The notes below the pieces were generated by a model. That model did no database searches and was not told where the DNA came from. It saw nothing but the letters and a program-made list of their open reading frames with translations. The position numbers were made by a program, and so were the translations under genes. Positions 20,661 to 60,487 of a stretch of DNA of 64,000 nucleotides are shown here, in pieces. Every line of letters starts with the position of its first letter. The first letter of the stretch is position 1. Source of the stretch: Schmidtea nova (Eukaryota); assembly GCA_044892505.1 (NCBI GenBank), contig CM097882.1, positions 247,380,001 through 247,444,000 on the forward strand. The letters run 5' to 3'.

Positions 20661-20737
20661 ATTTTTCAATAACTTTAAATAAAATTTTAGTTACTTTAAA
20701 TTTCAAATATTAACAAGAGATATAAATATATTTTAAC

Positions 20738-21560: not shown

Positions 21561-21589
21561 AATTGTTATCATCAAAAGACTTAGTAAAG

Positions 21590-23790: not shown

Positions 23791-23799
23791 TCGAGAACG

Positions 23800-34164: not shown

Positions 34165-34894
34165 GAGACACGTGTTCGTCACAGCGAATACACATACTTT
34201 TCTGAGACTAAAAATTAGATTCATGAAACTCTTAAGAAAGAATGAAATGAAAACCGGCCCCAATATGTACATACATAAATTAGACGAGAATATTTCCTTT
34301 AATAACGATAAATAATTATTACAATGTACACTTAAGTACCTGCCATTTATTGCGTGACCGTCACACAACAAAGTGTTAAAATTATCAAGTAGACTTATTA
34401 AATGATGTTAATGTTGAGCATTGTTTGGATCTTCACTATAATTGATGGACCAAAGATTATTTACGTAAATCATTTTATAAGGCCACATTAATTACATTTC
34501 GCAATGGTACGTCATTGAAAGCCATTTCTTCATCTAGCAAATTTGGCATTCCACTTCTGACCCGATATTGAGTTTGTATTAAATTAAAAATTAAACACAA
34601 TGCCAGTTAAATGTCCATAAGCTAAACTTTAATTTGTCCTAGCATGATATCGGTTATGATCTTTATTTGTCAAAGTGATTATATCAACTTTCTACACTAA
34701 ATATTAATGTATTCACTCGCTGGTCGAGATTCTGCTGCGACATCTATTGAATTATGTCAATGACTGCCAATACTTTTTATTGTTATTCTTTATTAAAATC
34801 AGTTACATTTTAACAAAACTAATTTACCAATCAATTGAATTAACCCAATTTGATCCAGTGTCCTGTTTATAGGACAGTAGAATAAATTGATTTG
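34165..34894 (+). repeat. Left half of the interrupted host repeat (continues at 63208-64000)
   Basis: Matches the reverse complement of about 506-1233. Confidence 0.9.
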
Positions 34895-35421
34895 TGCTGG
34901 GATTATGGGTGGGTTTTACGTAATTCAAATAAACAATTAATCATACTAGGGATTCCGCGCCCATAACCATACATAACATGACTACTACACGCGTATGCCC
35001 TTGACTATTCCCCACTAGTCAAGTTGGTACTGCATACGGTGGTGGAAAAATGATGGGCAGGTGAGCTTTGTCGCCAAAACTACTCCCCATTTATCTTCCC
35101 TCGGGTTCTTGCTGCCGATAGAAGGTCTTACGCATTTACATTCTATGGATGTTCGTTTCCTACTGAATTTTATACTACATATCCCTATGATCTATCACAC
35201 GCTTTTCCCAATGACGCTCTCCCTCGCTGTTCTACAAGCCTACGAAAACTCTCGCTGCTAAGTAACGGTCGGTGTAGGTTTTACGATGCGATTTTTAGTT
35301 CTACGAATTACTTATGTAGTCTTATTTTATTTAGTGAAATCACACGATGAGAGAAAAAATTTACACAGTAATACTTTATTAAAATAATAAAGACAGGTTG
35401 TTATGTTACATGGAGATTTTC

Positions 35422-36006
35422 CTATTCAAACTCCAGGCTAATCTCCTGGATTAACTCTGCTTCGGTTAAGGAGTTCAGGTGGTGAATTTGTTCGTCCAGG
35501 CGCCTTGCAAATTCTCGGCGACGACGACGCTGTCGCGATCCCATTCGATGTTTTCGAAGCTGTGGGTTTATGGCCGGTGCTGACGCTATTGTTCTCGGGG
35601 GATCACTGGGAAAAATAGGCAAATCTTCCGTTGTAAGAGTGGGTGCCATGATGATTTCCTCTTCCGTCCCGCAAGCGACATCTTGGTGAGTGCATTGTAT
35701 CCAGCGCTGAGCCGTGATCGGCCGGATTAGCGCTCGTAATTCGGAGTCGATGTAACTTCTTGTTACTGCGTTCAGGCAATTTCGGAGTTCTCGCTGGACG
35801 GCATCTAATTCCAATTTGGTTGTAGCCAATGCTTCCTGCACTCGCTCGAGTTTTTTCGACTGGTCCTTCATCTGTTCGGGCGAGAACCACTTCGCTTTCA
35901 ATTCATCATTGGCGACCGTGAGTCGCTTGATCTGTCGCTGCTGGTCCCTCAGCTTTCTCTCTTGAATTTGTCCCATGATTTTCTTCGAATTTTCTGAAGT
36001 CGGCAT
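35422..36006 (-). CDS. LTR-encoded 194-aa coiled-coil protein with an Arg-rich motif (3' LTR copy)
   Basis: ORF track. N-terminal coiled coil; RKHRMGSRQRRRRREFARR. A diverged homolog lies at about 9.4-9.9 kb. Confidence 0.72.
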   Translation of the reverse strand: MPTSENSKKIMGQIQERKLRDQQRQIKRLTVANDELKAKWFSPEQMKDQSKKLERVQEALATTKLELDAVQRELRNCLNAVTRSYIDSELRALIRPITAQRWIQCTHQDVACGTEEEIIMAPTLTTEDLPIFPSDPPRTIASAPAINPQLRKHRMGSRQRRRRREFARRLDEQIHHLNSLTEAELIQEISLEFE

Positions 36007-36322
36007 GTTGTCTGAAGATTATAACGATAAATTCACTGGAGGGCCTATCAACAATGTTATTTTATTTAAACAACTATTATTATTATTAAACGAGATGTAT
36101 ATTAATGTTTTTAATTGTTGAGTTCTCTACAAAATTATTTAACTATCTAATCATTGAAGACTAAAAAGGTTTATTGAACTAATTTTATATTAATAAATGA
36201 ATTTCCTAATGACTATAACAACTACAATACTAAATCTACATGACAACACTATTAACAAAACGAACATTTCAGAATTCTTTAAAACATTTATTTAATTTAA
36301 AAACAGGCGGCCATTGATTCAG

Positions 36323-36799
36323 CTATTCATCCTCGGTCATTTTTCCTCGATACGAAAATACCGAGCGGATCTGCAAATTTGTATGGATTCCTGTGTTATT
36401 GGACGAGGCCTGCTGGAAACGGATTCTCTCAGCTTCTCGGAGGGGTCGGATGGCTGTATTGAACTTGAACCCCAATTCCTTGAAGGTAGAGGCTGGAATG
36501 AACCCCCAATAAATGACACATCTCGGGAATCCACCTTTGTCCAACATCATGATGAACCAGGCGGCGTGCCATGATTCGTATTCCTCGTCTGGAATGATTG
36601 GCCAACTAGCGCATCCCCGGTACCATACGTGGTGCCGTGGATGGTCCCATACTGTAAATGGACAGGCGGTTTCGAGCTCTCGGCGCCATGCCCACATCTT
36701 TTGATGGATTTGCTGTAAAATCTCGAAAGGAGCCGGCTTTAATGGGCTAACTCGGGCTCGTTCTTGTCGTTTTTTGATAGTGTATCTATGCTTAGCCAT
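36323..36799 (-). CDS. LTR-encoded 158-aa protein of unknown function (3' LTR copy)
   Basis: ATG-started ORF in a GC-elevated block with AT-rich flanks. Confidence 0.6.
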   Translation of the reverse strand: MAKHRYTIKKRQERARVSPLKPAPFEILQQIHQKMWAWRRELETACPFTVWDHPRHHVWYRGCASWPIIPDEEYESWHAAWFIMMLDKGGFPRCVIYWGFIPASTFKELGFKFNTAIRPLREAERIRFQQASSNNTGIHTNLQIRSVFSYRGKMTEDE

Positions 36800-38345
36800 G
36801 ATTCCAAAACGATGCTGAATTTTATAATAGTTACAATTTACATCAATAATTAATCATAGTAAATGTTATCTCTCATCGTGATTCCTCTATTATTTGCCTT
36901 CCCCTTAGACCTTAGCTGAAATCAAGAAAAAACTGTTGTTTGTTACAGTATGCATTACTCTCGTATCTACTTAGATTTATCTGTTTATGATCAATTTGAT
37001 AGACGAAAAAATGATGATTTGTCTGCTTGGATTTTCAAAATATTGGTACCTCAAAACGGAAACTCTCTCCCGTCATGTATCCCTAGTTTATTCGAAAAAA
37101 AAACGCTCTTTTGTACCAAACGCGGTCGACATAATTTTCCTAAGGTTTATTAGACGTTTATTAAACAGCGGCGCTATGGTGAGGGTGAAAAATTGTGCCT
37201 CCTCCCGGTTAACAACTTCTTTCATATCTTTAAGCTTTATCAAAAAATTCTCGTCCCCTCTGTAGCTAAAATGATCAGAAAATAATTTTCCGGATTTGTT
37301 GGGTGTCCCATGCGCAAGTCTCAACCACTACTGATAAAATTATGCTTTACTATTTATTACTTTACCGTGTGTGGAGCCCTCGAGCACCACGCCACGGACG
37401 GACACCTTGGGAACCTAAAGCTCCCAACGGCGCAAAATTAATATGATCATTATATATTTTAATGTTGAGTCCAATCACAATAACGTTTAATTCATATAAC
37501 AAATTTCAACACATGAATGCATAAACACATAAATAATTAGATCAATAGATAAATGACAAAGCAAATGACACAATCATGAATAAAATAATACAGAAACCAA
37601 AATACCTAATTCGTCTGGGTTTGCTTCGATCGGTTCGTCTAGAATTCAAAGTCTATTTGATTAGTGAGCTAAATTTTACACTCTCAACTGACGTTGTAAG
37701 ATTAGGTATTAAGTCTGTTTTATCCAAAGTCTGATCAGTATTTATACTGATCAGTCTGATCTAGACTGACCAATCGGATTTGGCCGATTTCATGGTGGGT
37801 TTTAATTATTGTTTTTGATTCTAATTAATTTTTATTTTTTTAGATTGTATTCTTCCTTGGAGGTCCGGGTTTCAAAAACAATTATTCAATAACAAGTACT
37901 TTTATTTGGTTTTAATTATTATTATTTGTATTTTATTTGTTTTTAGATGTCTCCTGGGCCCGTTAATATCTATAAATTCATTTATTTTTATTTATAGCTT
38001 GTACTTAGTTATTCTATATTTTTACTATATTATTCCTTTCTTTTAATAAATAAATATTCCCCTTTTTACCTTATTTTTCTCTTTTTTGTTTTAATTAATC
38101 TACTTTTATTTCATTTTTTTCTCTATTTGGCTGGCCCAACATCACTCGGGGACCCCTAAAATTGCGTCCCGCAATTAATTATACATTTACACCTATATCA
38201 TCATACATAAAAATTAAGCAGATAAATGTCAATTTACATATACACAAAGAATCACGTAAGGTGATAGATTTTATACGTAAGCACAAAGTCATATTATTGT
38301 TAAATGTAAGTGGATCATACATAAAGTGAATGTAATATATCAGTT

Positions 38346-38918
38346 TTACACAAGCTCTTTGATTTCATGATTGGTATTGGATTGGATAGGGGTTCTTTCG
38401 CTGATTGTTCGTAGTTCGTAGTGGCTTTGGATTCGGTTTAGGTGTTTTCTCATTCGCTTTTGGGTTCTGATGTCTTGTATTGTTGTTCGATTCAGGATGA
38501 CATGTTTTTGTTTTAAGATCTTCACTCGGTATGATGTTATGAGGATTGTGATCGCGATAATGGTCACGCTGAGTGCAAGGATTATTATAATTGCGATGAT
38601 CCATTTTTCTTGATATTCTATCTCTGCTTGGGCTAAGCTTTTTATGGGTTCTCGACCTTCTTTTAGGGTTTTTCTGATTGTTTTCAATTTGATTCGATGT
38701 TCATATAGGACCTGTTGAAATTTTTCATCGTTTGGGTTGTCTGATGTTATCTGTTGAAGTTGGGTGATTTCTTGTGTTGCTTCGCTGATTAGTTTATCTA
38801 GTTCTTGATAGGTTTTCTCGGGTAGGGCTCGTAGCTCCTTCTCTGTGAGTTGAAGATCTTCTCTTTGTAGGGTGATTGTTATTAGGTATAGGAATATCGG
38901 TATTCGGAGCTTTTTCAT
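38346..38918 (-). CDS. 190-aa predicted membrane protein (hydrophobic N-terminus, coiled coil, TM helix)
   Basis: N-terminus MKKLRIPIFLYLITITLQ; TM WIIAIIIILALSVTIIAITILITSY; basic tail. Confidence 0.75.
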   Translation of the reverse strand: MKKLRIPIFLYLITITLQREDLQLTEKELRALPEKTYQELDKLISEATQEITQLQQITSDNPNDEKFQQVLYEHRIKLKTIRKTLKEGREPIKSLAQAEIEYQEKWIIAIIIILALSVTIIAITILITSYRVKILKQKHVILNRTTIQDIRTQKRMRKHLNRIQSHYELRTISERTPIQSNTNHEIKELV

Positions 38919-39000: not shown

Positions 39001-40062
39001 TTACACAATCGTCTCGTTTGGTTCGTAGAAACCTTCGTCCTGAGGTTCTACCTGGTTCGTGGGGAGTGGTATCCAAACAACCCTGCTCCTCCACATTTCG
39101 ACTTCATCTCGATACATGTGAGATATCTGGATCTCCTCGTCCAGCAAATATTCTAGGTAATTTGCTTGTTCTGTTAATGTTTCTATTTGCTTCTCTAATT
39201 CGATTACTTTTGTCTTTTGTTCGTCTTCTTTCATCATTTTTGTTACGGCTGCCGTTGTACTTGTTTCTTTGGGTATTGCTAGTACTGTTACTCGTTTCTG
39301 TTTCAATTCTTCGTTTTCTTTCATCAAATTCGTTAAATTTTCCTCATAACTTTGCTTCGCTTCCTTTAACCTTTCTCTGGTTCTTTTTAGCTCTATTTTC
39401 TTCTGGGTAATCACTCCTTGATAACCATTTATATCTCTCTTCATCTCTTCTTCTTTCTGATTCCATATTCCGGTGAGCATAGATTTCAGTTGTTCTTGAT
39501 TAGCTAGTTCTTCTCCCATTCTTTGAACTTGATAGGTTAGTCCTTTAATTTTCTTTGCTTGTTCGCGGATAAATTGCTGTCTTTTTGTATTCCATCTTTT
39601 ATTTAACACTTCCTGGTTGATTTTTTGCTCTAACTCGTCTTTTAGTTCATCGATCTCTTTATATAACTTCCAATCATCACTATAATCTGTCCTTTCTATT
39701 ATTTCTCTAGCTTTTTCGTAAGATTCTTTCGCTTCTTTCTTCCAGTATCTTGCTTGTTCTGTAATCGAATACATCTTGTGTTCAGCTTCCATCTGCTGTC
39801 TGTCTCTTTCCTCTCGTCGCTCTTTCATCATTCTCTGGTAATATTCCTTTTGTTGTTGTAGCATTTTGTATACTTCTTCTATTTTTTCTCGACTTCTTTG
39901 ACTTGATCTTTCCGCTTCTTTTAATAATTCGGCTTGTCTCTCTATCTCCTCTTGCTTTCCATAATATGCATTGACCCATATTTCAATCTGTTCTAGATGA
40001 TCGCTAATCGCTTCTGCTTGATGCATCGTAATTTCCTGTAAGCATACTTCGATATTTCCCAT
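39001..40062 (-). CDS. 353-aa coiled-coil protein
   Basis: Long E/K/Q/R-rich heptad-like sequence; no catalytic motif recognised. Confidence 0.8.
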   Translation of the reverse strand: MGNIEVCLQEITMHQAEAISDHLEQIEIWVNAYYGKQEEIERQAELLKEAERSSQRSREKIEEVYKMLQQQKEYYQRMMKERREERDRQQMEAEHKMYSITEQARYWKKEAKESYEKAREIIERTDYSDDWKLYKEIDELKDELEQKINQEVLNKRWNTKRQQFIREQAKKIKGLTYQVQRMGEELANQEQLKSMLTGIWNQKEEEMKRDINGYQGVITQKKIELKRTRERLKEAKQSYEENLTNLMKENEELKQKRVTVLAIPKETSTTAAVTKMMKEDEQKTKVIELEKQIETLTEQANYLEYLLDEEIQISHMYRDEVEMWRSRVVWIPLPTNQVEPQDEGFYEPNETIV

Positions 40063-40178: not shown

Positions 40179-41561
40179 TTACGTCAACCATTCTTTTCTA
40201 TCCGCTTTCTCATTCCTTTCCATTTCTATGTATAGGGTGTCTGCATATAATCGTTCCCATAGGCTTTCTTTCGTTATAAACATTGGTTCTCCCGCTGCTA
40301 ATCCACATTCTGTGGTTGGTTTCTCGCTCGTACTCGCATGTTTCTCTGTCTCAAAGAATTTTTCTACTGGTTTTGTTACATTTCTGATTCTAATGATGAC
40401 TCCTACTTTCAAGGGCCATTCTACTAGGTCGTCGTATTCTCCTTTACATAGCGAGAAAAATATTGACACATGTGTTCCTCGTCCTCTTCCGTCTCCATTT
40501 GGGTATAGCTTCAATCTCACTTTAGCTCCGTTTCTCCATAAATAAAATGGTGGGCTTATTACTGCTGTTTTCGTCATATTTCTGGCCTCTGTTAATTTGT
40601 TTCTAAAATCTGTCACTTTCCACACATAGGGTGCGATTGGTAACTTTTCCTCGGTATCCTGGGTGAGTTTGTTGTACTGGATTTTCATTCCTTTAGCCAA
40701 TTCTTCGATAGCTTTTATCTTTTCCTCCATCTTTTCTCGTGTTAGTTCGAATTGCTCTCTGGTTTCCAACAGTAGGTTTACCATTATCTTGTGTGACTCT
40801 ATTTCTCTTTCTAATTTTTTGATTGTTTGTTCGGTTTCTTTTGTTGCTTCGTTTGTCATTTCCGCATGCTTTAGCAATGCTTCCTCCAGATGTTGTTTCA
40901 TGGTTTTTTGCGTTCTTTTCTCCATACATCCCTGTTTGTTATAAGGACATTCCCTTGGTTTCTCCGTGCACACTTTCCAATGTTCTTGTAATTTTACTTC
41001 TACCGTTATCTCGCATTCGTTTGAACATATTCCTACATATTGTCTACATACTTTCTCCTCTTTTATATTCAGGTGTTCTTCTTCGATCTTTCTCCTCGTT
41101 TCTCGAGTTCCACAATATTCGCATAGACTTTCCTCTTCTTTACATTCATCTTTGTGCTGCTCTTTATTCTTTATAGTTATTTTTTGTTGGCATTTGTTAC
41201 ATTCAGTTCTCTTCTCTTCGCAGTTCTCCAGATGGTTCTCGAGATCGCGTATTTGTCCTTGCCATATACATGGTTGATTTATACATTCGGTTTTCGTGTT
41301 CATGATTTCTCTCTGAGTTGCTCTATCTGGTCCGGTTTCTTCGAATTTTATTTGACCTTCTTTGCATTCTGGACATTCTGGTGGTCTTTTCATACTTAAC
41401 TCGTGTATGCATTTGGTACATACTCTGCATCCGCATAGGGTTTGTCTTGGTTTCAATATTATGTTTTTACAATTTACACAAGTGAGTCTCAGACTCCATT
41501 TCCTGTTCTCGGCTCTCAAAATTTCGATTATCCGCTCTTCGGCTTTTCCTTCTGTATTCAT
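40179..41561 (-). CDS. TRAF: Full-length intronless TRAF-family protein (RING, TRAF zinc fingers, coiled coil, MATH/TRAF-C)
   Basis: RING CVNC..QTLCGCRVCTKC..CPEC. TRAF fingers such as CPYNKQGC..KQHL. MATH domain YVWKVTDF..SPPFY..KVRLKLYPNGDGRGRGTHVSIFF..GEYDDLVEWP. Confidence 0.95.
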   Translation of the reverse strand: MNTEGKAEERIIEILRAENRKWSLRLTCVNCKNIILKPRQTLCGCRVCTKCIHELSMKRPPECPECKEGQIKFEETGPDRATQREIMNTKTECINQPCIWQGQIRDLENHLENCEEKRTECNKCQQKITIKNKEQHKDECKEEESLCEYCGTRETRRKIEEEHLNIKEEKVCRQYVGICSNECEITVEVKLQEHWKVCTEKPRECPYNKQGCMEKRTQKTMKQHLEEALLKHAEMTNEATKETEQTIKKLEREIESHKIMVNLLLETREQFELTREKMEEKIKAIEELAKGMKIQYNKLTQDTEEKLPIAPYVWKVTDFRNKLTEARNMTKTAVISPPFYLWRNGAKVRLKLYPNGDGRGRGTHVSIFFSLCKGEYDDLVEWPLKVGVIIRIRNVTKPVEKFFETEKHASTSEKPTTECGLAAGEPMFITKESLWERLYADTLYIEMERNEKADRKEWLT

Positions 41562-41651
41562 TCTACAATGATATATACACTTGATTTGTTATCTATTTTT
41601 TGATTTTTCTTGTTTTTGTTTTACATATTTACAATTTTTCGCTTTATTTAT

Positions 41652-42008
41652 CTACGGCTCGTTTGTTGAATCTGGTTCTGGGTCGTTTTCTGATCTGTTT
41701 ATTGCCCAATTTGTCCATCCATCCTCTGCTTCTTCTGTCTCTCCCATTGTTAAACGGTCTATCTCTATTGCTTGTCTCTGATTTATGTCGCTCATCACTT
41801 GATTCTCTCTGGTAAGTTGCGTTATCAATCTCTGTTGCTCCTCGATTCTGTGGAGTTGTTCAAAACTATTATTATAACTTTCGGATAACAAATTCTGTTT
41901 CTCAATTAACTGATTTTGTAGTGAGTTGATTGTTCGTATTAACATGTCACACTGGGCTTTCCATCGCATAGCCATAGTAGTTTCTGCTATTTCTTCCTGT
42001 TCGTTCAT
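41652..42008 (-). CDS. 118-aa coiled-coil protein with an acidic tail
   Basis: ORF track; heptad pattern LIRTINSLQNQL..LTRENQ. Confidence 0.65.
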   Translation of the reverse strand: MNEQEEIAETTMAMRWKAQCDMLIRTINSLQNQLIEKQNLLSESYNNSFEQLHRIEEQQRLITQLTRENQVMSDINQRQAIEIDRLTMGETEEAEDGWTNWAINRSENDPEPDSTNEP

Positions 42009-42133: not shown

Positions 42134-43510
42134 CTATATCACCATCACTGTCTCTCCTTCGTATCGCTCTTCATCTTCTATTTGTCTCCAAAATTCTTTG
42201 CCTTTCGTCCTCCTTTGAAATTCTTTCTGTACTTCTTCCGGTAATTCTATACTGTAGTTCATAATCTTTATATCTGGCCAATGTGTTATTGGTTTCTTGT
42301 TGAATACATCATATATCCATATTATTAATAATACTGTTATTACTGGAATAGTTGCTGCTAGTATTCCCAGACCAATTAGTTCTCTAACTTGTTTGTTTAC
42401 GTCCATCTTCGTAATTTCACTCTGGTTAATCATTGGTCCGTATTGTCCCTTTAGTTTATTTAGTAGTTGTTCTCGTTCTTGTTGTTTTCTTTTAACTTCT
42501 TTAATTACTTCTTCCGGCGTCCATCTTGCGTAAGGGTCTATTACTACTTGTTCCGCGTCCATTTGTTTCGTTGTCTGACTTAATTCTTTAAATTCGAGTT
42601 TTCTCACTTTCCCTTTGGACGTTGAGTTTACCGGTGTGTAGTACGTTTCGCATCTTTCCTGCTGATTTCCTAATATGTCCGTCTTTTCTACCGCACATAT
42701 CTCGTATTCGCTATTGAATTTCAGATTTCTGATACTTATTTCCTCTTTTCCTTTCACGTTTCCACAGTCTCGTGGCTGTCTTTCCCTTTGTTTCTGAACT
42801 ATTACCCAACATATTTCTAACGTTTTATTGTCTATTCTCCATAGTATAAGAGTTGCTGTAGTATTCTTTTCGGTTCTTATTTGTATTTCTTGGTTTTTCT
42901 GTTGTCCATTAGGTTTAAAGGTAGTGGTATACCTCGTTTTTCCTTTGTTCCGTTGTCTTCTGCTTTTTCGCGTTGTCTTTCCAATTCTTGTTCTGGTGGG
43001 TGTTTTATATATTTTGCATTCCAGTTCATTTACTGTTATTTTGTCGCTCTTCCTGATCAGGCATATTTCGTACGTTTGATTACTTTCTAACCCTTCTATC
43101 TGTATTGTGGTTGTTCCTCTGTTTGTTCGACATTGCGGCGGTGTATTCTGGTTTGTTTTCTTTTCCTGCTTCTTCCAGCATACGCCTTTGACGTCCGGTT
43201 CCATTCCGGTTAACTCTAACATTATAGTTGTTCTCCGTTTGGTGCGTTTATTTCTTCTTCCTCGTCGTATGAACTTTATTGTTTCCCCAGGTTGAAATGT
43301 TTTACAAATTGTCGTTCCTTTCTTGTGTCTTTCTTTTTCTAGTAAACATAGTTCATACGTCCTGTCTGCTTTTACTTCTGATATCTTGGTTACTTTATTT
43401 GTTTTCCTTTTCCGACTCGTCTTTATTTCGCTTACGCCAATTTCTTCGTTGCTTCTGGCCCAACACTTTGGGTTGGTGTTTTGGGTGTCGTTCATCTCTG
43501 TTACTGCCAT
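42134..43510 (-). CDS. 458-aa membrane protein with three FN3-like repeats; in frame with the polyprotein
   Basis: Repeats ADRTYELCL..TICKT, GLESNQTYEICLI..ECKIYKTP and NLKFNSEYEICAV..RCETYYTP. TM LIGLGILAATIPVITVLLIIWIY. Confidence 0.8.
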   Translation of the reverse strand: MAVTEMNDTQNTNPKCWARSNEEIGVSEIKTSRKRKTNKVTKISEVKADRTYELCLLEKERHKKGTTICKTFQPGETIKFIRRGRRNKRTKRRTTIMLELTGMEPDVKGVCWKKQEKKTNQNTPPQCRTNRGTTTIQIEGLESNQTYEICLIRKSDKITVNELECKIYKTPTRTRIGKTTRKSRRQRNKGKTRYTTTFKPNGQQKNQEIQIRTEKNTTATLILWRIDNKTLEICWVIVQKQRERQPRDCGNVKGKEEISIRNLKFNSEYEICAVEKTDILGNQQERCETYYTPVNSTSKGKVRKLEFKELSQTTKQMDAEQVVIDPYARWTPEEVIKEVKRKQQEREQLLNKLKGQYGPMINQSEITKMDVNKQVRELIGLGILAATIPVITVLLIIWIYDVFNKKPITHWPDIKIMNYSIELPEEVQKEFQRRTKGKEFWRQIEDEERYEGETVMVI

Positions 43511-43543
43511 TGTGTCAATGTCTATCCCTTCTTCTAACCGTTT

Positions 43544-46500
43544 TCACATTGTTAATATGAGTGCTAAACATAGTAATTCTGCTTGGTAGGTCACTCTTTC
43601 AGTTTCATTTGTGGTTACTCTTACTTCGGGCCTGTCTATGGTAATTTGTATAGTTGGCGTTGTTCGTCTGTCTATTGTCTGATGTTTCTTGTTTTTTGTT
43701 CCTTGTGTCTCTGTTCTTCCACACTTTCTTACGACATAGTCTCCTTTGGATGACTGCTGTACTGTTATGGTTACTTTGGGTGTTAGGTAATTTGCACATG
43801 CAATTGTCTTATGTGATCTCGGATCCTTTGGTTTCCGAACGGTGCACATTCTGTACCAAGTATCTAGCTCTAAGTCATCGATCTCTATGATTTCTTGTTC
43901 ATATTCTGAGATCCTGCAATCCATTGGACTATTTTGTCCCGATATTTTGTCCTTTTTTGACCAACATACTCGTTCGATTCCTTTTGCGTTTCCAATTTGT
44001 ATTGTCGCTTTTTCTTCACATATCATTCCTTGAGTTGGACTAATTAAGGTCATGATTACCGTTAGTAATAATAGTTCTGGTTTAAAGAATGGGTTTATTG
44101 TTTGTTTGTAGCCTGTTCTTTTTACTTCGTTTTTATTTTTATAGTTGTTGTTTCTTTGTTTCCCAAATTCATTGTTCTTATCATTTTTCTCTGTGTCCCT
44201 TCCTTTCTCTTCACTGTCCTCTTTATCTGATAACTCATGATCCTCTGGATTTTCTCGAGTACTATCGTCGTCGTTTCCTGTATTGTCACCTCCCCTTTGG
44301 TCGTTGAAAATGTCGTCCTCGACATTAACTGCTTCTATCATTTTTTCATACGTTATGGTTGTGAGTATACTTGCTTCGTATTCTTGTGTTACTGCCTGCT
44401 TAGGTATTTCCTTATCGGTTAATTTACAATCTAGAATCTCTTTCTTGGCTTTTATCCAATTATTAAGGTACGTTTTCATTAGTTCTTTCCATTTGTCCGT
44501 ACGTTCTGTTTCCTTTGGGTTGTTTGTGAATCGTAAATCTTTTCTTCTCATGAAGATGTCTATTATCTTTGGCCATTTGTTTATTATTAATGCACACTTT
44601 ATATACAAATTTTGGCCTTGTTCCATGCACTCGTTGATCCTGAATGCTGGTTCATTGGTGTTTGGGTTCATCCAATTGAGTATTGCTTCAGTTAGTTCAG
44701 CGTTATGCATCATGGAATGTACGCTAGCTTTTTTAACTGTCCTTGTAAGGTATTCTATTTCCTCCTGATTTGTGATTGTTTTTATGAAATTTATCACCTC
44801 CCAATTGTGCGCTAACAACGCTACGTCTAGTATTGAGCTGTCTTTGTTAGTTCTTCCCATGAGTCCTGCACCTGCTTCGTACAGTTCCTGTAACACTCGG
44901 GTTTTTGTGTTCGCTCTTGCTGCGAATATCATGAGGGTATCTCCCTTTTTATCTTTCATGTTCATGTCACTTCCGCAATCTTGCATCAACCGTGCAATTT
45001 CGACTACCCTCCTATCTTTTCCTGCTCGTAAGGCTCTATGTATTGGCAATACTCCATTCTTTGTTAATAAGAAAGTCACTGGCATTTCTCTTTTTATGAT
45101 CATCATATCGTTTTCATTGTAAGTTCCTTCCGCATATGCGTGTACCTTTTCCACAATTGATCCGAGTATCTCCAGTGTATGTTTAGAATTCTCGAATTCT
45201 GGTAATAGTTCTTTTGCTTTGTCCTGTATCGCATCTAACCTTTCTTGATATGGTACCTCTGCGCTGAAAAGTGGTGTAAATTTCCTTTTGCTTTCTCTTT
45301 CCTTTCGACCTAGGAATTGTTTGCATTTTTCGGGGTGGTTTAATATGTCTACTAGTTTGTCATACTCTTCCTCCACCGTTTTGTACTTATCTTGAAAATT
45401 GGATATATCTTTGTAAGTTATCGACTTGGTTAGCGATTTTGCACACCATTCCCTAATTTTCCTGAATAATGCTTCTTTTTCGCTTTCGAATTTACACTCC
45501 TCTTTGTTTTTGGAAATTGTGATCTTTCTTCTGTCCAATAATATTAACAGTGTTTTCTGATCACAAACTAATTTTAATAGGAATTGAAATAACGCGTTTT
45601 GTCCTTTACTGTATACTTCGTTTATATTTAATACCCATGTATCATTTTCGGATCTTTTCCATTTTATTAGCTTGCGTATTGTTTTGCAGTTACCGATTTT
45701 TATTGCCTCCTTGATTATATCACCTTTGATCAGTTCGTCTATTTCCCAAGTGGCCTTCTCGATTATTTGTTTGAGCATTATCTGATTTGAGCTCCATATT
45801 GCGTGATTCAAGACTGTTTTGTTTTCTCTATCGCGTTCCGTCCAGTTGAAATCGGCATTTATCAAAAGGTCTATTATTGCTTTATCCGATTTGTAGATGG
45901 CTGCTACCATTAATGGTGTTTCTTGTTCGCTATTCCCAAAACCAAGGTGTTGGTTTGTTTCCTTAGCGATTTTTAGAAATTCTTTTACTCTCTCTACTTC
46001 TCCCCATTTTATGGCGTTATGTAATGCTGGTTGTCCTCCTATGTCTTCTAGTGAAAGTATTTCTGGAATCTTTTCCAGTAGTTCTGAAATGACTGGTTTT
46101 GTTGGTAGTCCCCTTGCGTAATCACTAATTATCGACTGAATATCTCTTAATATATCGTCTCTGACATGCCATTTTCCCATTATTTCTCTGGCTTTTAGTA
46201 CAATTTCCTTGTTTCTTTTTTCTCGTTGATTGTTCTCTGCTTCGGTACTTTCATTGGTTGCTCTGAGCATATTCATTCTGGCTGTCTGGGATCTGGTTAT
46301 TATTCGTTCTTCTGGCGCTGTGGTTATTGTCTTTGGTACTTTTTTACATCTGCATGTATTAACGTATATTGGTCGTATCAATGGTCGATTAACAAGTTTT
46401 ACCTTCACATTGTTTTCCTTTTTGTATATAACTTCGTAAGGGCCTTTTCCTGGTCTTTGTAGTTTTTTAACGGTTCCTGGTATTATTTCTGGGGTTTCTA

Positions 46501-49500
46501 TCATCACCCAATCTCCGGGTTTAAGATCATTTGTTTTAACATTTTTCTTTTGATCGTGTAGGTCCTTGTAACTTTCTTGATAAAACTTTATGTTTAGTTC
46601 TGCTGTCTTCCATATCTCTTGCATTCGTTCTTTGAATTTGGTGACGTAATCATCTTCCTCCATATATTGAGACAAAGGTGGTTGATATTCAAGATCTATT
46701 GGCATATTGCATTCCCTTCCATACATTAATTGAAATGGACTCAATTTTGTTGCTGCGTGTATCGACATTCGGTATGCCATTAGACATAGCTTTATGTACT
46801 CATCCCAATCTGTTTGGTGTTTGCTTACATAATTGGATAACATTCGAATCAATGTGCCGTTAAATCTTTCCGTTTGTCCATTAGTTTGCGGATGATATGG
46901 TGACGTTCGTAATTTGGCTATTCTGAAGTAATTTGTTACTTCATCTAGTATTTCGCTCATAAAATTTGTTCCTTGATCTGTTAGTATTTGTTTCGGGGTT
47001 CCGTATCGACAACATATTTCCTCTACTAAAATTCTTGCTACGGTCTTTGCTTTTTGATCCGGCATCGCAAATGCTTCAGGGAATTTAGTCAAATAATCCG
47101 TTATTACCAATATATATTGATTCCCGTTTAAACTTTCTGGCAATGGTCCTATTACATCCATCGCAATGGTAGTCATTGGTTCCGCTGGTATTGGCATGGG
47201 TTTTAAGGGATTTTTCCATTTCTTCCCACTATCCTTTCTTGTGGCACAAGTTAAACAGTTCTTTATCCATTCCTTTACGTCTTCGTCCATTGTTGGCCAA
47301 TAATATTTTTGTCTCATGCGATTTAATGTTTTCTTATCGGACATGTGTCCTCCCAACTTTCCGTCATGGTATTGAGTTATTATCTCTTTTCGTCTATTAC
47401 CTGGCAGACACATTAATCGTTTCTCTCCATCTCGTATTAATAACCATCCTTTTTCTATTGTGTATCGATGTTGGTATTTCCTCATGTGTTCCTTTAACTC
47501 TGCATTGTCTTTGAATACATCCATATTTCGTGAGCTTAGGAATTCTATGATGGGTCTTAGTTCTTTATCCTCTTGCTGATCTTTCTTTAACTCACTGAAA
47601 TCCAAATCCTCTGCTATCATTATGCATATTCTTTGCACTTCTGGGTCTGTTAGTTCTGGAAACGTTAATCTTGACATGCAATCTGCGTTGGCATTCGCTT
47701 TTCCTGATTTGAATTTTATATCTGGTGAATATTCTTGTAATTGCATCGCCCATCTCATTAATCTGCTGGATGTTTCCTTATGTTGTCCTAGCCATACAAG
47801 TGGTTGATGGTCTGTGGTTATGCATATGACGTGTCCCCATAATAGATATTTGAAGTGTTTTATTGCTAATATTATTGCCAATGCTTCTCTTTCCGTTACT
47901 GAATAATTCTTCTCGTGTTTCTTGAATGTTCTGCTATAATATCCGATTACCCGCTCTTTTCCCTCGTCATCATATTGTCCTAACACTGCTCCTGCTGCAT
48001 ATCCACTTGCGTCGGTTGCGAGTAAAAATGGCTTTTTGAAGTCCGGGTGAACCAATATTGGTGCAGTTATTAGCTTATCTCTCAATGTTTCAAAGGCTGT
48101 TTGTTGTTCGCTTCCCCATATGAACGATACGTCTTTCTTTACTAGCTCCTGGATTGGTTTTGCAATCCCTGCGTAATCCTTTATGAATTTTCTATAGTAA
48201 CCGCATAATCCGAGAAATTCTTGGATCTGCGTTATCGTCTTTGGTACTGGACATTCTTTTACTTTATCAATGTTTCTGGGATCTGGTTCCTTTCCTTTTG
48301 CGGACACAATATGTCCTAAGAATGTCACTTTCTCCTTTGCCCAATCGCATTTCGATGGTTTGAGCTTGAGTTTCCATTGTCTCAATCTAACAAATACATC
48401 TCTGATATCTTGGATGTGTTGTTCAAATGTGCTTGAGTAGATCAGTAGGTCGTCAATGTAAACCATGCATTGTTTTATGCCGTGGGTAACGAAATTCATA
48501 CATCTTTGAAATGATGCTGGCGCATTGGTTAGTCCGAATGGCATTTTCCTAAATTGGTACAAGTCTCTTCCGATAGTGAAAGCAGTTTTCTCTTTGTCTT
48601 CCTCCTTCATTTTAATTTGCCAGTATCCGCTTTTCAAATCCAATGATGTAAAATATGCCGCTCCTTGTAATGTCAATAACATCTCGTTGATGTCCGGTAA
48701 TGGGTAGGTATCCCTTTTTGTAACTGCATTTAATCTCCGATAATCGATACAAAATCGTTGTGTTCCGTCTTTCTTTTTCACCATTACAACTGGGAATTGC
48801 CACGGTGAGCAGCTTGGTTCAATTACTTCTGCGTCTAGCATTTTCTGTACCTCTGCTTCTGCTACTGATTTTTGCGCTTCAGCTAACTTGTATGGTCTTA
48901 ACGCAATAGGCGTTTCGTCTGTTAGGGGAATCGTATGTAGTGTGACGTCGCATGTCCCTAGATCTAAATCGGATGCTGCGAATATATCTTTATATTCTAT
49001 CAGTAATCTTTCTAGCTGCTTCTTTTGATCCTCATTTAATAGTTGGCTATCAATGTTCCAAGTGGGTTCCTCCTCTTTTACTCCTTCTTTTATTGGTATT
49101 TCGATATCCATCATTGGAGTTAGTTTACCTAGTCTTTCATTTTCATAAATTATTTTATCCTCTTCATCGAAATTTACTACAGTTATTGGGATTTCTCCGT
49201 TGTCATTCGCACTCACTAATCCCCTTGCCATTGGCAACGACTTTCTCTTTTCAAATCTTTTACTGGGTTCAAAAATCATGTCACCTTCTATTGTAGGGTC
49301 TATTTTTACGAAGCATATTTTCTCTCTCCGTGCTGGTACGATTATTTGTTTCGAACTTGTTACTTTTGCTTCTATTGCGCATATCTGTCCTGTCCTATCC
49401 TTTAATCTCATTGTTCCGAGGTCAATAACTATTTCTTTAAATAATGCTGGCATCAGATCCGTGCCTATAATGCATGGTACGCTCAGTGCTGGTATTACTG

Positions 49501-52500
49501 CTACGTACGTTTCGATTTCCGTGTTTTGATGTTTTATCTTTACCCACCATCTTCCGGCAACTTCTACTACTTCTTTACTGCATGCTATTACGTGAACGTT
49601 GGTTCTCTCAATATCCCGTCTTTGTTCTTGTGGTATCCATTTTATATCTATTGCTGAGATATTTGCTCCTGTATCAATCATCGCTTCAATTTCCCTTCCG
49701 TTAATTTCGATTGTTGTAGTTAATACTGGACCGGTGTTTGATGACATTACTGCAATTGTATGTGAGTCTCCTTGCGGATCTACGCTTCTGCACCGTCTCG
49801 TTCTATAGTCTTCTGGTATCATAGGATATATGTTTGTCATCGGCATCATTTGCATTGTATTTTGTCTCATCCCTGGTGTTGGTTCTTGGTACATGGTTGG
49901 TGGGGGTGCGTAACACTTCCACATTTCCGCTGGATTCTTTTCGACATACTGTGGTACTTGATTTTTAAATACTTGACCTCCTTCGTTATCATCATCATCG
50001 TCGTCACTGGAATCGTCTTGGGTTCTGTACCCTTTCATTCTTTCCCATAGTCCTTTTCTCTCTTTCTTTAGTTGTTGTCTTGCTTGCTCGTTATTCATTA
50101 TCTTTTTAAATTTTCGTCCCACCTCTTCATCGGTTCCTTTCATTTTTGCCAGTATTTTTAGGAGTCTCTTTATTCGGTGAATATCTTTTGAATGACCGTG
50201 TAATACCATTGTTTTAGCCAGAAATGGTAAGAATCCTACCACCAATTTCCAATTTACTTTCTTTTCTCTTTTATAGATGTCAAAACAGGCTAACATTTGC
50301 GTTATTATTACCCGTATTATTTGTATAATTAGTATAACACCAAGTATTCCTGCCATCATTTGTCCAAATATTAAAAATCTTCCCCACATCGCTTTCATCA
50401 TGTTTTCCGTTGCCTTCTTAAAGTGGGCTGGTGACAATAATAATTCGTAATTTGGTCCACCTTGGTAATTTGTTCCTCCTGTTATTGTTACAATACTGGA
50501 TAACACCGCTTCTCGTCTTGCCGGAAATAGTATGTTTTGTCTTGCTGCTTCTAAATCCTTTGCGCTATAGAATCCCATATTGCTTACGTCTACGTCTTTA
50601 AATTTTCGTCCTTTTGATAGTTGCATCAATTCAAATTCCCTTGGTGCTGGTACCTCTGTTCTTGACGGAAACATAACCCAATTTCCGTCTGGTTTTTGGT
50701 ATAGTGGTCCATATGCGTTGCTGCAATTGAAAGGGTTTGGTTCGAAACTTACTGGATTTATGATTCTTGTCACTGGTTGTACATATCTTACTTTCCCTTT
50801 ATATTCGATTTCTAGTTCGTTAGTACACTGACCTGGTTGTAGTTTTGTCATTGTCGCTACCTTCGCATTTGTCTTTTTACATATGTATACGTACATGACC
50901 TCTCCGACTACTCTTCCAAAATGACCTTCTCTTAATGGTAATAATGGCATTGCACTATCCGGGTTTGTGATTGCTACTGCTAATTTTGTCTTTAATATTT
51001 CCCTATTTAATATGCAATCGTTGTTTATTAAATCGTAATACACTTTTTGTAGTGACGCTTGTCCTCTATGGAATAGAAAATCCATTTTATTGTTCATGTA
51101 AAGGTGTAATTTAACATCGTTCGTGTGTACTTTGCGTTTCGCACTAGGTACTTCTTGTTTTGATACAAAAATGCCGGGGTAGTTGGTTTCCAACATGGCT
51201 ACTCCGCATTTCAAGGCTGTTTTTCCTTTTACAAACCTCATTCCGATATCTGCATCTGAGGTAATTAGTACCGTTGGTGTATTTCTCATTTTAATTTGTT
51301 TTTCTTGTGTTCGGGTTTCAATCTTTTTCTCTCCCCGTACTGTGTCTTGAAGTATTTTTCCTCTTGCTGCCTCGTCTTCTTCTTCCTCTTGGAAGGTTTT
51401 CCCTTGTATCTCATCGAATTCTGCTTCCTTTAACAGTTGTAGTTGACATTCCTTCCCTCGTATCTGGTAGGTTAGGGTTGACATACCAGTCTGACAAGTG
51501 TTTGACTCGATTTTGCACATAGGTAGAGTTTTCATTTCTCCCGTCGTTGGATCGAAGAATGCCTCGTACGTTTTTAGTTCCACTGTATACGTATCTATTA
51601 CCACTAGGTTTGTTGCTGCTACTCCGAATATTGGATATGTTGCTCCTTGGCAGTACCCTTCTCCTCCCGTAATAGCTCCTGCTACATAATATGTTTGTTG
51701 CAATATCACTCCCGTTTTTCCTCTTATCTTTACTCTATCTCTAGTCTCTACTTCTCCATGTTTAAATAATTTTTCACAGTCTTCTCCTTGCAGCATTACC
51801 GATTCTCTTTCCGTTCCTGGCATCACGATTGCTGAATAATGGCGGTGTCCACAATAAAAAGCAAATCTGGTTTTATAAACTTTGCATTCTCTGACCATTG
51901 TTCTTATCAGTTCAGCTTCCTGATATACGTGGTATAATTGTCTCTTTTTTAATGTTTTTAGCTCCGTTGGGGTTGCGTCTTTACATTGTTCTGTCCCTCG
52001 TAATGAGTATTTTTCACCTAATGCCATTTGATCACAATCGAATACTTCAAATGCTGTTGCTCCGTCAGTACTAATCATCCATATTAACATCATCATAATG
52101 ATAGAACTCAGGTTTAGTGATGATTTCCCGTTTCCTGTTCCCGACTTTTCCTTTTCCAATTCTCCCAATATCTCTTCGAATTTCTTTTTCATATTTTTGG
52201 CTTGGTTTTTCTTTTGGTTCGTTTTTGTGAATGTTTCCCATCCTCCTTTACTGATGATGTACGGTTCTATTTCTTTCTCTATAATTTTGGCTGTATTCTT
52301 TATATGTCTTTCAAGTGCTGTGGGTTTCAGTCGACCTCTACTCAGTGTCAGCAGATTGTAGATGGTGTATGCCATAGCTATTAAATATTTGTTATCCGTC
52401 TCTGCTCCTTCCGTTAACTTCTTTATCAACATCGTGGTTCCTTGCCAATCTAGGTGGTTTGACCTTGTCTTCTCTTTTATTAGTTCTGGTAGGATTGGTG

Positions 52501-55500
52501 CGATGGCGCTATGCAGTGATTTCGCCCTTTCGCTTATTTCATTTATTCTCCACCATTTCTTTAATTCCGGATCGATTATTGCCAGTATTTCCATTAACAT
52601 CTTTGATATCCATTCCTCGCCTTGGTATGTTTGTGTTGTTTCTTTTTCTTTCGTTACGGCTATTTTATTTAGTTTCTTTAGACACAAATCCCATTGATCC
52701 CGTCTTTTTTCCTCTCTTGATTTTATAACTACATTTGCTGGATCCATCTTGGGTCTACCTCTAGGTCGTTTATCCATTGTCGTGCCCGTTTCTACTAATC
52801 TTGTTTCTCGTCCAGTTTCTTCTGTGACGTCTCTTGGTTCATTGGCTCTTTCTTCTAACCATCTTTCCATTTCTTGTGTGAATTGTACGTTTTCTACATT
52901 TGCCCTCCTTGCTTCCTCTTCTGCTATTTCATTTACTTCTTCGATGATTATTTCTTGTTCAACTTCATCTTCGGTGTTGGTTACCGGTATTGCTGTTGGT
53001 AATTCCTGAATTCTTTCGAAAATATTATCATCTTTCTCTTTTGTTAGCTCTATTAACTCCTCTAACATATCATCGCTATCTGTAAAAATTTCGTCTACAT
53101 CGTATGGTTCTGGTGGTGTTCTTTCTCTTGTCTCTCTTGGTGTTGTTCTAGCTTGTTCTGAGCTTGTTCCTGGAGTCCTTACCGATTTCATTGGGCTCGG
53201 CGTACTCATACTTCCTTTTGGTTTCTTTTCCTCTTTCAATTTCAATGGTTGACCTGCTATTGCTGCTACTGTCAATGTATTTGCGATATCTAATTGCGCT
53301 GGCGTTATTCCAATTTCTAAGCTGTTATCTAATGATCGTCCTTGGTGTTGTAAATGGAATGGTGGTTCATATCTCAATTTCTTTTTAATGTCTCGAACTT
53401 TCTCCGCTATCCCTACCCAAAACTCTTCCTTTTCTTGGTTCGGATATACTATTCTTAGGTGTACTTTCTGTGGCGATTCCTGCGAGAATTCTTGGTTTCT
53501 CCATTTTTTAATTACGTGATCCAATTGTTCTGGACACCACTCGTTAACTCTTTTGTATTCGGCGATTGCTTTTGCTACTTTACGCAAGCATGTTATGTCT
53601 TCTCCATTAACTACGAAAAAATCTGCGAGACCTTTTACTACTTTTCTCTTGCCGTGCGCATTGGTTTTTAATATTTCGACAAATTCTTCCGTTTTTTGTT
53701 TTTCTCTTTCCAACCACATGGTTGTCGTTTCTGGTCCGTCTAAATCTGCTGGCATGGCTTTTCTTGTTACCATACAGACTCTTCCGGTTTCCGGTTTGTG
53801 ATCGTCTTCTATGCCTATTCCGTATTCCTCTTCGTATTCGCCTGCTTTTGGTTCCCAACATTTTCCTCGTTCGTTCCATTGTTTTTCTACAGGTGTTCGT
53901 AATCGTCTGTTGAGATTGAGTTCTTCTAATACATCTTCCCATTCTGGCCAAATCCGCCAATTTCGATAAATGTCTACTATTTGTTGTAATTTATGCACAA
54001 CTTCTTTTTGTCGTTCCCGTTCTCTTTTCTCATCCTTAGCAGTTTCTCTTGGTGTATCGTCCATTCTGATAACGTGGATGGTTTGGTGATTATCCCATAT
54101 ACCAATTTTATATAGCCGTCTTTCATCGTGATCCCATAATACATGTTCGTTGTATTTCATGATTATGTCATCTTCCCATTCTTCTTCTGGTTCTCTTTGT
54201 AATAGTGTCTCGTTGATGACATTTACTAATTCTTTTATGGTACAATCTGCTACCACTTCAATTTCTTTGGTATCCTCATTAGGTAACTCTACTGCAATTT
54301 TCAGATCTGTTATTTTCCCTTGTCTGAACATTGCTTTTCCCATTTTTGCAATTACTTTTCCGTATGAGATCTGTGACCATCTCGTGTGACTTGTGTCACG
54401 TATGCATTCGATACATCGTTTCAACTTTTCGTATTCGCTTCTCATTAACTCCTTTCTATGTTTTTTGATTTGTGGGATGATTTGTTCTATCATGGAATTT
54501 AGATTTCCTCGTAAGATTCGTCCTTTCTCATATTCTAACCGTGGTTTTATCTTCCTCTCGAAACACATATTTGCTTCTTTTGCTACTTCTTGTAGGTTCT
54601 CTTCTCTCTTATCATCGCATATCGATAATGTTGTCACCTCTCCTGGCCATATGCCTGTTTCTATCAAATGCGTCCTTTTCTTCACTAGTCCATTCTGTGA
54701 ATAGAGGAATTTGTTTTTATATGAACTCCCTAATCTGTCTTCCACCCATTGATAAATATCTTCCGTGAGTGGAGTTTTGATCCAAATCCTTGGCAAACAT
54801 GTTTTTATCTCTATTAGGATTATATATTCATGGAGTGGTTCTTTTAATAATTTTCCTACGTATTGGCTTAGTGTTTCTACTTCCCGGCCTGGTAACCACT
54901 CTTTATAGTTCATTTGTAATATTGCTCTCATGAATTTTCTATAGTGTTTCTTGTCAATGAATTCCTCATTATATATTACTTCTAGCGTATTATCTAATAA
55001 TTTCTGGATCTCGTCTTCTTTTACTTGAATAGTTTCTGGTGTCTTTACTACTTCTATCTTTTTGTCTTCAATTTCCGGTTCGTCTAGCATGTCCCCTGCT
55101 AGACTACTGACGTCACTATCCTCTTCATCGTCTGAAAAATTCTTTGCCTGGCCTCTCAACATGTTAATGTGTTTTATCTGGTTAATTTCACTTGGTGTAT
55201 TTTCCGTTGGTCTTGTTTCACTTTTAATAGCTTTTTGTGTTGATTCACTCTTGTCGTCTACTACTTCGACCTTTCTCAATTTTCGTTCTAACTCGTCTAT
55301 TTCTCCCAACCGTCTTCGTATCATTTTCCCTTTAAATATTCGACTGATTCGTGTTTCGTGACGCACTGGCGATGGAATTCCTTCTGGTTCTATTTCCTTG
55401 ATTACCATCACATTTCTTTTTGTCTCTACTACTCCCATGTTTTCCCATGTATCCGTTAGTTTCAATTTTACTTCTGGTGCACCTTCTATTTTTAGGAATG

Positions 55501-57523: not shown

Positions 57524-58077
57524 CGGGATTACTTTTGTATACTCAATTTTCCTGTCTTATCGTGTTCCGATTCTTTTCTTCCTTAGTTGATTGGTTTGGT
57601 TTGATTGATTTATCTAAAATACAAATGTCACTTCAACGATACTCTATTGTTATCGTTGCGCTTTTATTCCCTTTTTACGGGACTTCTCATTACTGGGTTT
57701 CTATTATTTTTCCCCATTCCCAGATTCCCCTTTATTTAAGTCTATTTAAATTATCTATATACTAGTCACAATTATCTATTTAGTCATAACAATTATCTAT
57801 CGGTTATTAAAATACATCAATTATTTTTCCCGCGGTCTCCCAATTTATTTGTCGTTCGAACGCTCTAATTCCCTGAGTCATTTGACTCGATTATTATTTT
57901 TTCATCTCTTTATCTTTCTCTCTGCTAGCCTCTAATTATTAATTCTGCCGGTCTTTCCGGTCAGCTCCTATTTCTCGATTCTACTTGCATGCATTATTTT
58001 AGGTCGCATAATCAGCTTTACTCGCATTTCTCTATTATCGGTGCGCACTATTCTCATTATCGTCGACGATCACAACT

Positions 58078-59171: not shown

Positions 59172-59633
59172 TTATAAATAAACTACAATTTTATCAGCTA
59201 CAGAGAAATTGCACATGGGGCACTCATCACACTTATTCGCACAGTTTTTACAGAATCGAAAATGTCCACATGGCAAAAACATTATTTGGATTTCACTGTC
59301 TTCGCATATGTAACATTGTTTATATTGTTTTGCTGCCTCGACCCCTTGCGACATCCATCGGTTATATGTTAGACTTAACTGCTGTTCTATATGTCGGCAT
59401 CTGATATTCAACTCGGCATCCTCTAATCGTGCTTTGTACCATTTATATCGCGTATTTATATCGAGTTTATTTACTTTCTCTATGATTTTTATTAACTCAG
59501 TTGTTTCCTCAGTTTGTGTCGTAGGTTCCTCATATTCGGATGCTCTTATTCGGGTTATTTTTTCGCAGACTGTCTCAAATGTATCGTTCTCGGTGTTGAA
59601 AAATTCTTCGATTTCTTTCAGTTTTTCCTCCAT
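59172..59633 (-). CDS. 153-aa protein with a C-terminal IAP/MDM2-type RING finger
   Basis: CYIC..IMFLPCGHFRFCKNCANKCDECPMC..KIVVYL at the extreme C-terminus. No BIR motif seen. Confidence 0.85.
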   Translation of the reverse strand: MEEKLKEIEEFFNTENDTFETVCEKITRIRASEYEEPTTQTEETTELIKIIEKVNKLDINTRYKWYKARLEDAELNIRCRHIEQQLSLTYNRWMSQGVEAAKQYKQCYICEDSEIQIMFLPCGHFRFCKNCANKCDECPMCNFSVADKIVVYL

Positions 59634-59936: not shown

Positions 59937-59954
59937 ATCCCGGCTGAGCCCCCA
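59937..59954 (-). promoter_or_regulatory. Primer-binding site, tRNA-Pro type
   Basis: Minus strand TGGGGGCTCAGCCGGGAT, 16/18 identical to the classical tRNA-Pro PBS TGGGGGCTCGTCCGGGAT; 6 nt from the LTR. Confidence 0.85.
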
Positions 59955-60487
59955 AATTTATGCTGGGATTATGGGTGGGTTTTACGTAATTCAAATAAAC
60001 AATTAATCATACTAGGGATTCCGCGCCCATAACCATACATAACATGACTACTACACGCGTATGCCCTTGACTATTCCCCACTAGTCAAGTTGGTACTGCA
60101 TACGGTGGTGGAAAAATGATGGGCAGGTGAGCTTTGTCGCCAAAACTACTCCCCATTTATCTTCCCTCGGGTTCTTGCTGCCGATAGAAGGTCTTACGCA
60201 TTTACATTCTATGGATGTTCGTTTCCTACTGAATTTTATACTACATATCCCTATGATCTATCACACGCTTTTCCCAATGACGCTCTCCCTCGCTGTTCTA
60301 CAAGCCTACGAAAACTCTCGCTGCTAAGTAACGGTCGGTGTAGGTTTTACGATGCGATTTTTAGTTCTACGAATTACTTATGTAGTCTTATTTTATTTAG
60401 TGAAATCACACGATGAGAGAAAAAATTTACACAGTAATACTTTATTAAAATAATAAAGACAGGTTGTTATGTTACATGGAGATTTTC

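Follow-up and report, generated by a model that had tools for sequence, protein, structure and literature searches.

Burro1/GYPSM1 and Burro-2 to -4 of Schmidtea mediterranea are giant Ty3/Gypsy retroelements of ca. 28–30 kb with long LTRs and MATH/TRAF cargo (PMC6431247). According to the part of that paper covered here, they encode a huge polyprotein containing gag, a BCL2-like segment, an env in frame between gag and pol, PR-RT-RH-IN, and ankyrin repeats; MATH_TRAF_C lies within this polyprotein, and the cargo includes BIR. The same part mentions, as "not shown", a Burro-like element of Dugesia tigrina with a polyprotein without MATH and a separate MATH_TRAF_C ORF, which is located upstream and is not stated there to be a full TRAF. 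MATH/TRAF cargo of Burro, also as a separate ORF, has thus already been published. An expansion of planarian TRAFs was reported without a link to elements in the text covered (PMC6109357). A captured TRAF in a selfish replicon is also known from megalocytiviruses, in which ISKNV ORF111L binds host TRADD and alters cell death; in the covered text of PMC3352826, it promotes apoptosis, and its carriers are large DNA viruses, not retroelements.

In the window, the whole 64,000-nt stretch of Schmidtea nova DNA analyzed here, a complete TRAF gene is located inside a 28.3-kb element that resembles Burro1–4 in its length, long LTRs, MATH/TRAF cargo, and polyprotein contents, including the env between gag and pol, with a BCL2-like segment that is only weakly recognizable here. 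Compared by description, this element differs from Burro1–4 in that the TRAF gene stands alone downstream of pol, and from the D. tigrina element, with which it shares a polyprotein without MATH and a separate ORF, in that the ORF is downstream and complete. No BIR domain was detected by Pfam in this element, which has a separate RING ORF instead. In the literature searched, a full-length TRAF gene in Burro elements was not described, and a link between Burro and TRAF was found in PMC6431247 only. TRAF-domain cargo in Burro was therefore known, and what appears to be new here is the complete RING–finger–coiled-coil–MATH gene, which extends a known oddity. Since the cargo was known in outline, the surprise is limited.

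The TRAF gene (40179..41561, minus strand) runs from ATG at 41561 to a stop codon with zero internal stops and encodes 460 amino acids, comprising a RING (residues 28–66), five TRAF-type zinc fingers (ca. 93–233), a coiled coil (ca. 229–301), and a MATH domain (312–447). The MATH domain matched Pfam MATH_2 above the cut-off (E = 4.6e-22, residues 312–447). In a PDB sequence search, TRAF5, TRAF3, and TRAF2 were the top matches (E = 1e-22 to 1e-21), with weaker matches to TRAF4 (1e-13) and TRAF6 (1e-7); the label "TRAF2/3/5-like" given to the MATH domain in the first-pass annotation therefore stands. zf-TRAF scored under the curated cut-off (E = 7.8e-5), and the five Cys/His ligand sets of the fingers aligned with those of host and outgroup TRAFs. 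Pfam did not call the RING in this copy at E ≤ 0.1 and gave it a weak score in the TRAF of a related family (family C, below), but residues 22–152 matched solved RING and finger fragments of TRAF2/5/6 (E = 5e-11 to 2e-7). In the alignment, all eight RING ligands are Cys (C28, C31, C43, C45, C48, C51, C63, and C66), and C45 occupies a position that is mostly His in non-flatworm TRAFs. The AlphaFold2 model has a single 73-residue helix (229–301) preceding MATH (mean pLDDT 84; pTM 0.39), and its fold matches were TRAF1/2/3/5. The protein is thus a member of the TRAF family by its MATH domain, coiled coil, and N-terminal RING and TRAF zinc fingers. The intronless gene, the RING with Cys at the usual His position, the zinc fingers, and the coiled coil, all claimed from the letters in the first-pass annotation, were each recovered, as was carriage by a retroelement, the ORF lying between two identical LTRs.

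These LTRs (5′ LTR, 59961..63207; 3′ LTR, 34895..38141; both minus strand) are 3,247 nt long, begin with TG and end with CA, and have no mismatch to each other. They are flanked by a 4-bp target-site duplication (34891..34894 and 63208..63211), and a further copy of the host repeat that was hit, at ca. 480–530 of the window, shows the target site uninterrupted. Since the LTR pair is identical, the insertion must be very recent. A primer-binding site (59937..59954, minus) is complementary over 18 nt to tRNA-Pro(TGG) of this genome at its 3′ end plus CCA. As a polypurine tract, just a short G run was present before the 3′ LTR. Genes for tRNA-Pro(TGG) form a tandem array with a 308-bp period elsewhere in this genome (G000:C1:459.61-459.65 Mb, L111), and the tRNA-end pattern had 1,191 matches genome-wide. 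Both LTRs contain two minus-strand ORFs of 198 and 176 codons (60488-61084 and 61389-61919; 3′ LTR twins, 35422-36018 and 36323-36853), which have homologs in the LTRs of other families and no Pfam match.

Between the LTRs, on the minus strand, the first ORF (59172..59633) encodes 153 amino acids with a RING at the end (Pfam zf-C3HC4_3, E = 8.7e-12), which we take to be of the IAP type, and has homologs in four other elements. The polyprotein frame (43544..57556, minus; 4,670 codons) contains gag with CCHC knuckles, a BCL2-like segment, an env-like fusion glycoprotein (E = 1e-68), protease, RT, RNase H, and integrase in the order PR-RT-RH-IN, and ankyrin repeats (E = 2e-12); env lies between gag and pol, and the BCL2-like segment scored weakly (Bcl-2, E = 0.12). 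A frame with an FN3-like repeat ectodomain and a transmembrane segment (42134..43543, minus) does not join the polyprotein in this copy because of an intervening in-frame stop, which is absent in families B, C, and E, where the frames are continuous. Downstream of it, four ORFs follow at short intervals, with TRAF in second place; the others encode a coiled-coil-like protein of 118 amino acids conserved across families (41652..42008), a coiled-coil-like protein of 353 amino acids with a conserved acidic tail (39001..40062), and a 190-amino-acid protein with one predicted transmembrane segment (38346..38918), all on the minus strand. By this anatomy, the carrier appears to be a giant LTR retroelement of the Burro/GYPSM1 type (Ty3/Gypsy).

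The FN3-like, receptor-like frame (also at L071:1955-4906 and L067:1-1911) has one transmembrane segment and a conserved tail starting with W-P-D, closes the polyprotein of sister families, and is duplicated in family B. The start of this tail presumably resembles the membrane-proximal motif of gp130-type receptors. The frame does not appear in the Burro domain list in the covered part of PMC6431247.

We grouped the copies in the genome into families, A being that of the window element. Families A, B, C, E, and F have a full TRAF at the same position, with protein identities of 43–100% to the window copy (B, 78%; E, 67%; C, 53%; F, 43%). In family D, only MATH is present, as part of a ca. 5,000-amino-acid polyprotein; this is the published Burro1 layout, and the RT of this family shares 90% identity with that of the window element. 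In counts of genomic places, which are lower bounds, cover families A to D, and used 28-mers for family A, TRAF of family A was found at 82 places and its RT at 78, family B at 154, and family C at 128, giving 364 TRAF copies for families A, B, and C; MATH of family D was found at 251 places. The first-pass annotation had held that sister elements without TRAF would argue against its reading, and the family-A copies pointed the other way. At 69 of the 78 RT places, the TRAF 28-mer was present at the expected 7.8 kb; with eight places from the protein search added, a TRAF match lay 5–9 kb downstream in 72/78 RT copies, and TRAF was found within 40 kb at 75/78 and at none of the remaining 3. Copies within family A are nearly identical to each other, and 71 of 87 protein matches were full-length and open, 12 had stops, and 4 were partial. 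Element neighbor ORFs were present at all sampled loci of family A (30/30) and families B/C (25/25), and at 0/30 of the top-scoring MATH loci, which belong to the host class.

Several copies had departed from this layout. A family-B copy of ca. 13 kb (L070:8703 to L072:2139; G000:C2:219.90-219.91 Mb) has near-identical LTRs and no gag, env, or pol, but its FN3-like, TRAF, coiled-coil, and membrane ORFs are still open. Family B as a whole is not non-autonomous, since pol was found upstream in 5/6 copies read. In copies of families E, F, and C (loci L181, L183, L185, and L159), RT and integrase are lost and protease is joined to the downstream parts, with TRAF open. A shorter Burro-like element (L147:9383 to L075:2790; G000:C2:416.80-416.82 Mb) is bounded by nearly identical LTRs of 4.2 kb; its protease is joined to ankyrin repeats, RT and integrase being absent, and it has several other accessory ORFs; no TRAF match was found in the stretches of it that were read. 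Host locus L075, considered as lying inside this neighboring element, does not, because the LTR pair closes ca. 1.8 kb before the gene.

To class the host TRAF genes of the same genome, the best 150 of 2,419 candidates from the family search were sorted by hand into 73 host, 75 family C, and 2 family D loci. At least 63 of the at least 73 host MATH loci are located in G000:C2:405-455 Mb and three on small contigs. In this region, TRAF-like host genes, most of them with two exons, form a large array with local tandem repeats; two apparent coding exons with an in-frame GT-AG pair were found in 3/3 genes tested, and the array genes form their own clade (100/99) apart from the element genes. The host TRAF expansion therefore exists independently of the elements. 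The first-pass annotation was right that planarian TRAF/MATH sets are expanded, but cargo does not account for all of this, as the host has its own tandem cluster. At the same time, more TRAF/MATH copies are carried by elements (at least 364 + 251, i.e., at least 615) than were found as host loci (at least 73).

At least eight host TRAF loci outside these elements have RING to MATH in a single open frame, and neither the Burro gene set nor an LTR pair was found in the 10–40 kb read around them. Because intronless host TRAFs exist, the absence of introns in the element gene is no proof of mRNA capture. The proposed capture of a host mRNA thus holds as regards the host origin of the cargo and loses intronlessness as its evidence. 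Cys in place of His was found in 14/14 host RINGs read from the genome and in three Dendrocoelum proteins, and His at that position in most non-flatworm TRAFs of the set. As far as these sequences go, a RING with Cys for His characterizes the flatworm lineage; an element-specific lesion was rejected, and the Cys is no sign of a decoy.

The closest named full-length matches of the element TRAF were Dugesia and Dendrocoelum TRAFs. Host flatworm TRAFs (Dugesia japonica TRAF2-like A; Dendrocoelum lacteum TRAF-2, -4, and -5; Smed-traf-2A/B) have the same compact architecture of 450–490 amino acids and the same Cys-for-His RING, often in one coding exon, but are only 29–35% identical to the element TRAF and lie outside LTR elements. 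Element TRAFs form a long-stemmed clade of their own with altered MATH groove residues. Word-based homolog searches with the single protein and with a five-sequence profile retrieved 12 distant proteins each. TRAF-like iridovirus proteins among the entries listed have 206–296 amino acids and are at most 20% identical to the element TRAF; the viral and element TRAFs are likely separate captures.

A careful tree was built from 29 of 69 rows, after removal of the other 40, namely seven with long branches, redundant copies from elements and host, and outgroups without a name. In this tree, the element proteins grouped together (100/99), protein P0035 joined them on a long branch (97/93), and the element and all flatworm TRAFs were split from those of other animals (98/97). 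In a MATH-only tree, families A, B, C, and D and P0035 formed one clade (96/89; 90/92 with E and F added). The grouping of D and P0035 with the element clade could be due to long-branch attraction. The best genome match of P0035 was 37% identical, with no close copy found, and 11/12 loci from this search had element neighbor ORFs, the twelfth being a host gene. On the suggestion that some annotated TRAF paralogs are retroelement cargo, the four named flatworm TRAFs tested all grouped with host loci, and P0035 grouped with the elements.

The TRAF branching ((A,B,E),C),F did not conflict with the partly resolved pol tree. The phylogeny with host TRAFs called for in the first-pass annotation placed a distinct element clade on the flatworm side without fixing its position among flatworm TRAFs: a topology in which the element clade falls outside the radiation of host flatworm TRAFs was not rejected (p-AU 0.28), and the nearest host-type rows were ca. 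3 changes per site away. The TRAF coding strand resembles the polyprotein in base composition (A 44%, T 17%); host TRAFs have A 36–38% and T 26–29%. The simplest reading of the trees and composition is one ancient capture with co-descent, and it is likely that a flatworm TRAF was captured once, long ago, and then descended with the element. As the capture is old, its route is no longer readable.

We calculated dN/dS between families by the Nei–Gojobori method. The ratio for TRAF was 0.150 for A–B (bootstrap 0.11–0.21) and 0.17 for B–C; synonymous sites were saturated for A–C, at ca. 53% protein identity. By domain, it was 0.19 for RING, 0.14 for the fingers, and 0.18 for MATH. TRAF diverges far faster than RT (A–C pN, 0.275 vs 0.044). 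These ratios show, at the codon level, purifying selection on every TRAF domain, and the RING half does not appear to be decaying. Purifying selection between families implies that TRAF is useful to the replicating lineage. On the other hand, family D, with MATH alone, indicates that one successful lineage can do without the RING half.

A motif ending in TTGTAG (41562..41582, minus), 1–3 nt 5′ of the TRAF ATG, is a putative 3′ splice acceptor, and TTGTAG precedes the TRAF ATG in 5/5 families. YAG was located within 4 nt of the ATG in 5/5 short accessory ORFs compared with 71/493 ATGs across the element, and the acceptor motif was missing at some accessory ORFs of B, E, and F. A loose scan for it gave 11 occurrences against a shuffle mean of 4.7 and maximum of 12, ca. 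twice the shuffles and not clearly above them, and no conserved donor was found by sequence comparison across families. The pattern suggests spliced sub-genomic mRNAs, in cis or with a spliced leader. Contigs of three sequencing runs of one study covered flank and element like genomic DNA, and none of the joints listed for them fell at the putative acceptors, a result that has no bearing on expression. In a related species, Burro1 is a PIWI-silenced target that is expressed when PIWI control fails, according to the covered part of PMC8532177.

TRAFs trimerize, bind receptor or adaptor tails via MATH, and couple them to ubiquitin signaling. By analogy, the element TRAF may be a signaling adaptor through which host pathways of cell survival or innate immunity are tilted in favor of the element, a reading on which we are evenly divided between acceptance and doubt. 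The protein would be translated from a spliced sub-genomic mRNA, to judge from the conserved YAG just before the ATG, and would trimerize through the coiled coil and MATH as other TRAFs do. MATH would dock on receptor or adaptor tails, RING and fingers would recruit the ubiquitin machinery, and TRAF may act jointly with the element's separate RING ORF and BCL2-like segment. Element-expressing cells would be kept alive, or a TRAF-dependent defense (TAK1/p38/JNK or RIG-I-type) would be blunted. In planarians, cell survival depends on the host's own TRAFs, which also react to cues of infection (PMC7586133, PMC8807557, and PMC7958881), a virus-encoded TRAF acts on host death signaling (PMC3352826), and interference of Burro with apoptosis and ubiquitination was already proposed (PMC6431247), each within the text covered. 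The selection on TRAF and its co-descent with pol lend sequence-level support to this published idea that planarian retroelements interfere with apoptosis and ubiquitin signaling, and one complete assayable protein can now be named.

E2 docking in RING ligases is usually via an Ile. At what we take to be this position, the element RINGs have Asn (A), Lys (B and C), Tyr (E), or Ile (F only), and a position we take to be the peptide-groove aromatic of MATH is Ser in families A, B, and E. Absence of the Ile in four of five families and loss of the aromatic in three argue against a strong ligase role. The absence of the Ile also favors a dominant-negative decoy that would occupy receptor sites or poison host TRAF trimers, with RING and fingers merely structural. 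RING-less TRAFs are classic dominant negatives, family D carries MATH alone, and a high copy number would suit titration. Nevertheless, RING and fingers are under as much constraint as MATH, all eight RING zinc ligands are kept in 5/5 full-TRAF families, shark and Lingula TRAF3 likewise have no Ile at the aligned position, and the flagged RING Cys is common to host genes; we consider a decoy rather unlikely. Alternatively, TRAF might serve the element's own cycle, binding the tails of its membrane proteins or ubiquitylating Gag or Env in assembly, with host signaling no target. The neighbors of TRAF do include element ORFs that have transmembrane segments and conserved tails, its MATH groove residues are partly unlike those of the host, and between the LTRs of the ca. 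13-kb family-B copy, recorded as identical in this comparison, just the FN3-like, TRAF, coiled-coil, and membrane ORFs remain. However, no canonical TRAF-binding motif was seen by eye to be conserved in the element tails, and the Burro-like element at 416.80-416.82 Mb had no TRAF match in the stretches read; we regard this role as quite improbable.

Two further readings fit the data poorly. If the dispersed copies belonged to the worm's TRAF repertoire and were selected through benefit to it, their excess over host loci (at least 364 + 251 vs at least 73) would fit, but the copies are young and in complete elements, 12/87 family-A matches already have stops, and the constraint is seen between families, i.e., along the replicating lineage; in addition, Burro1 is PIWI-silenced in a related species, in the covered text of PMC8532177. 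This makes a service to the host very unlikely. A host TRAF mRNA acquired recently and carried without function would explain why the gene is intronless and why family-A copies are nearly identical, as expected of young passengers. It is largely refuted by a dN/dS of ca. 0.15 between families with saturated synonymous sites, and no close host donor was found, the composition is element-like, and the gene is at the same position in five families; we give it hardly any credence. We therefore rank the adaptor before the pure decoy, followed by the internal helper, the host-serving copies, and the passenger. In a broader and doubtful reading that takes in the adaptor, Burro elements would be retrovirus-like replicons with a spliced accessory death-and-immunity kit (full TRAF, separate RING ligase, BCL2-like segment, and receptor-like membrane protein), most TRAF-coding DNA in this genome would be owned by elements, and the host tandem expansion would be partly an arms-race response.

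Whatever its role, the cargo affects work on planarian TRAFs, since counts of "expanded planarian TRAF" genes, RNA-seq mapping, and RNAi designs need an element filter when element loci number at least 615 and host loci at least 73. The window also contained other repeats, recognized by eye: Helitron-like Rep and PIF1-helicase pieces at 11573-17967 (minus), Polinton-type ATPase and polymerase B look-alike fragments at 19684-22868 and 28425-29150, a mariner-type transposase look-alike fragment at 23004-23426, and a broken ordinary gypsy gag-pol look-alike at 23753-26883. A near-exact 1,131-bp tandem duplication was located at 11918-14181, inside the Helitron-like region.
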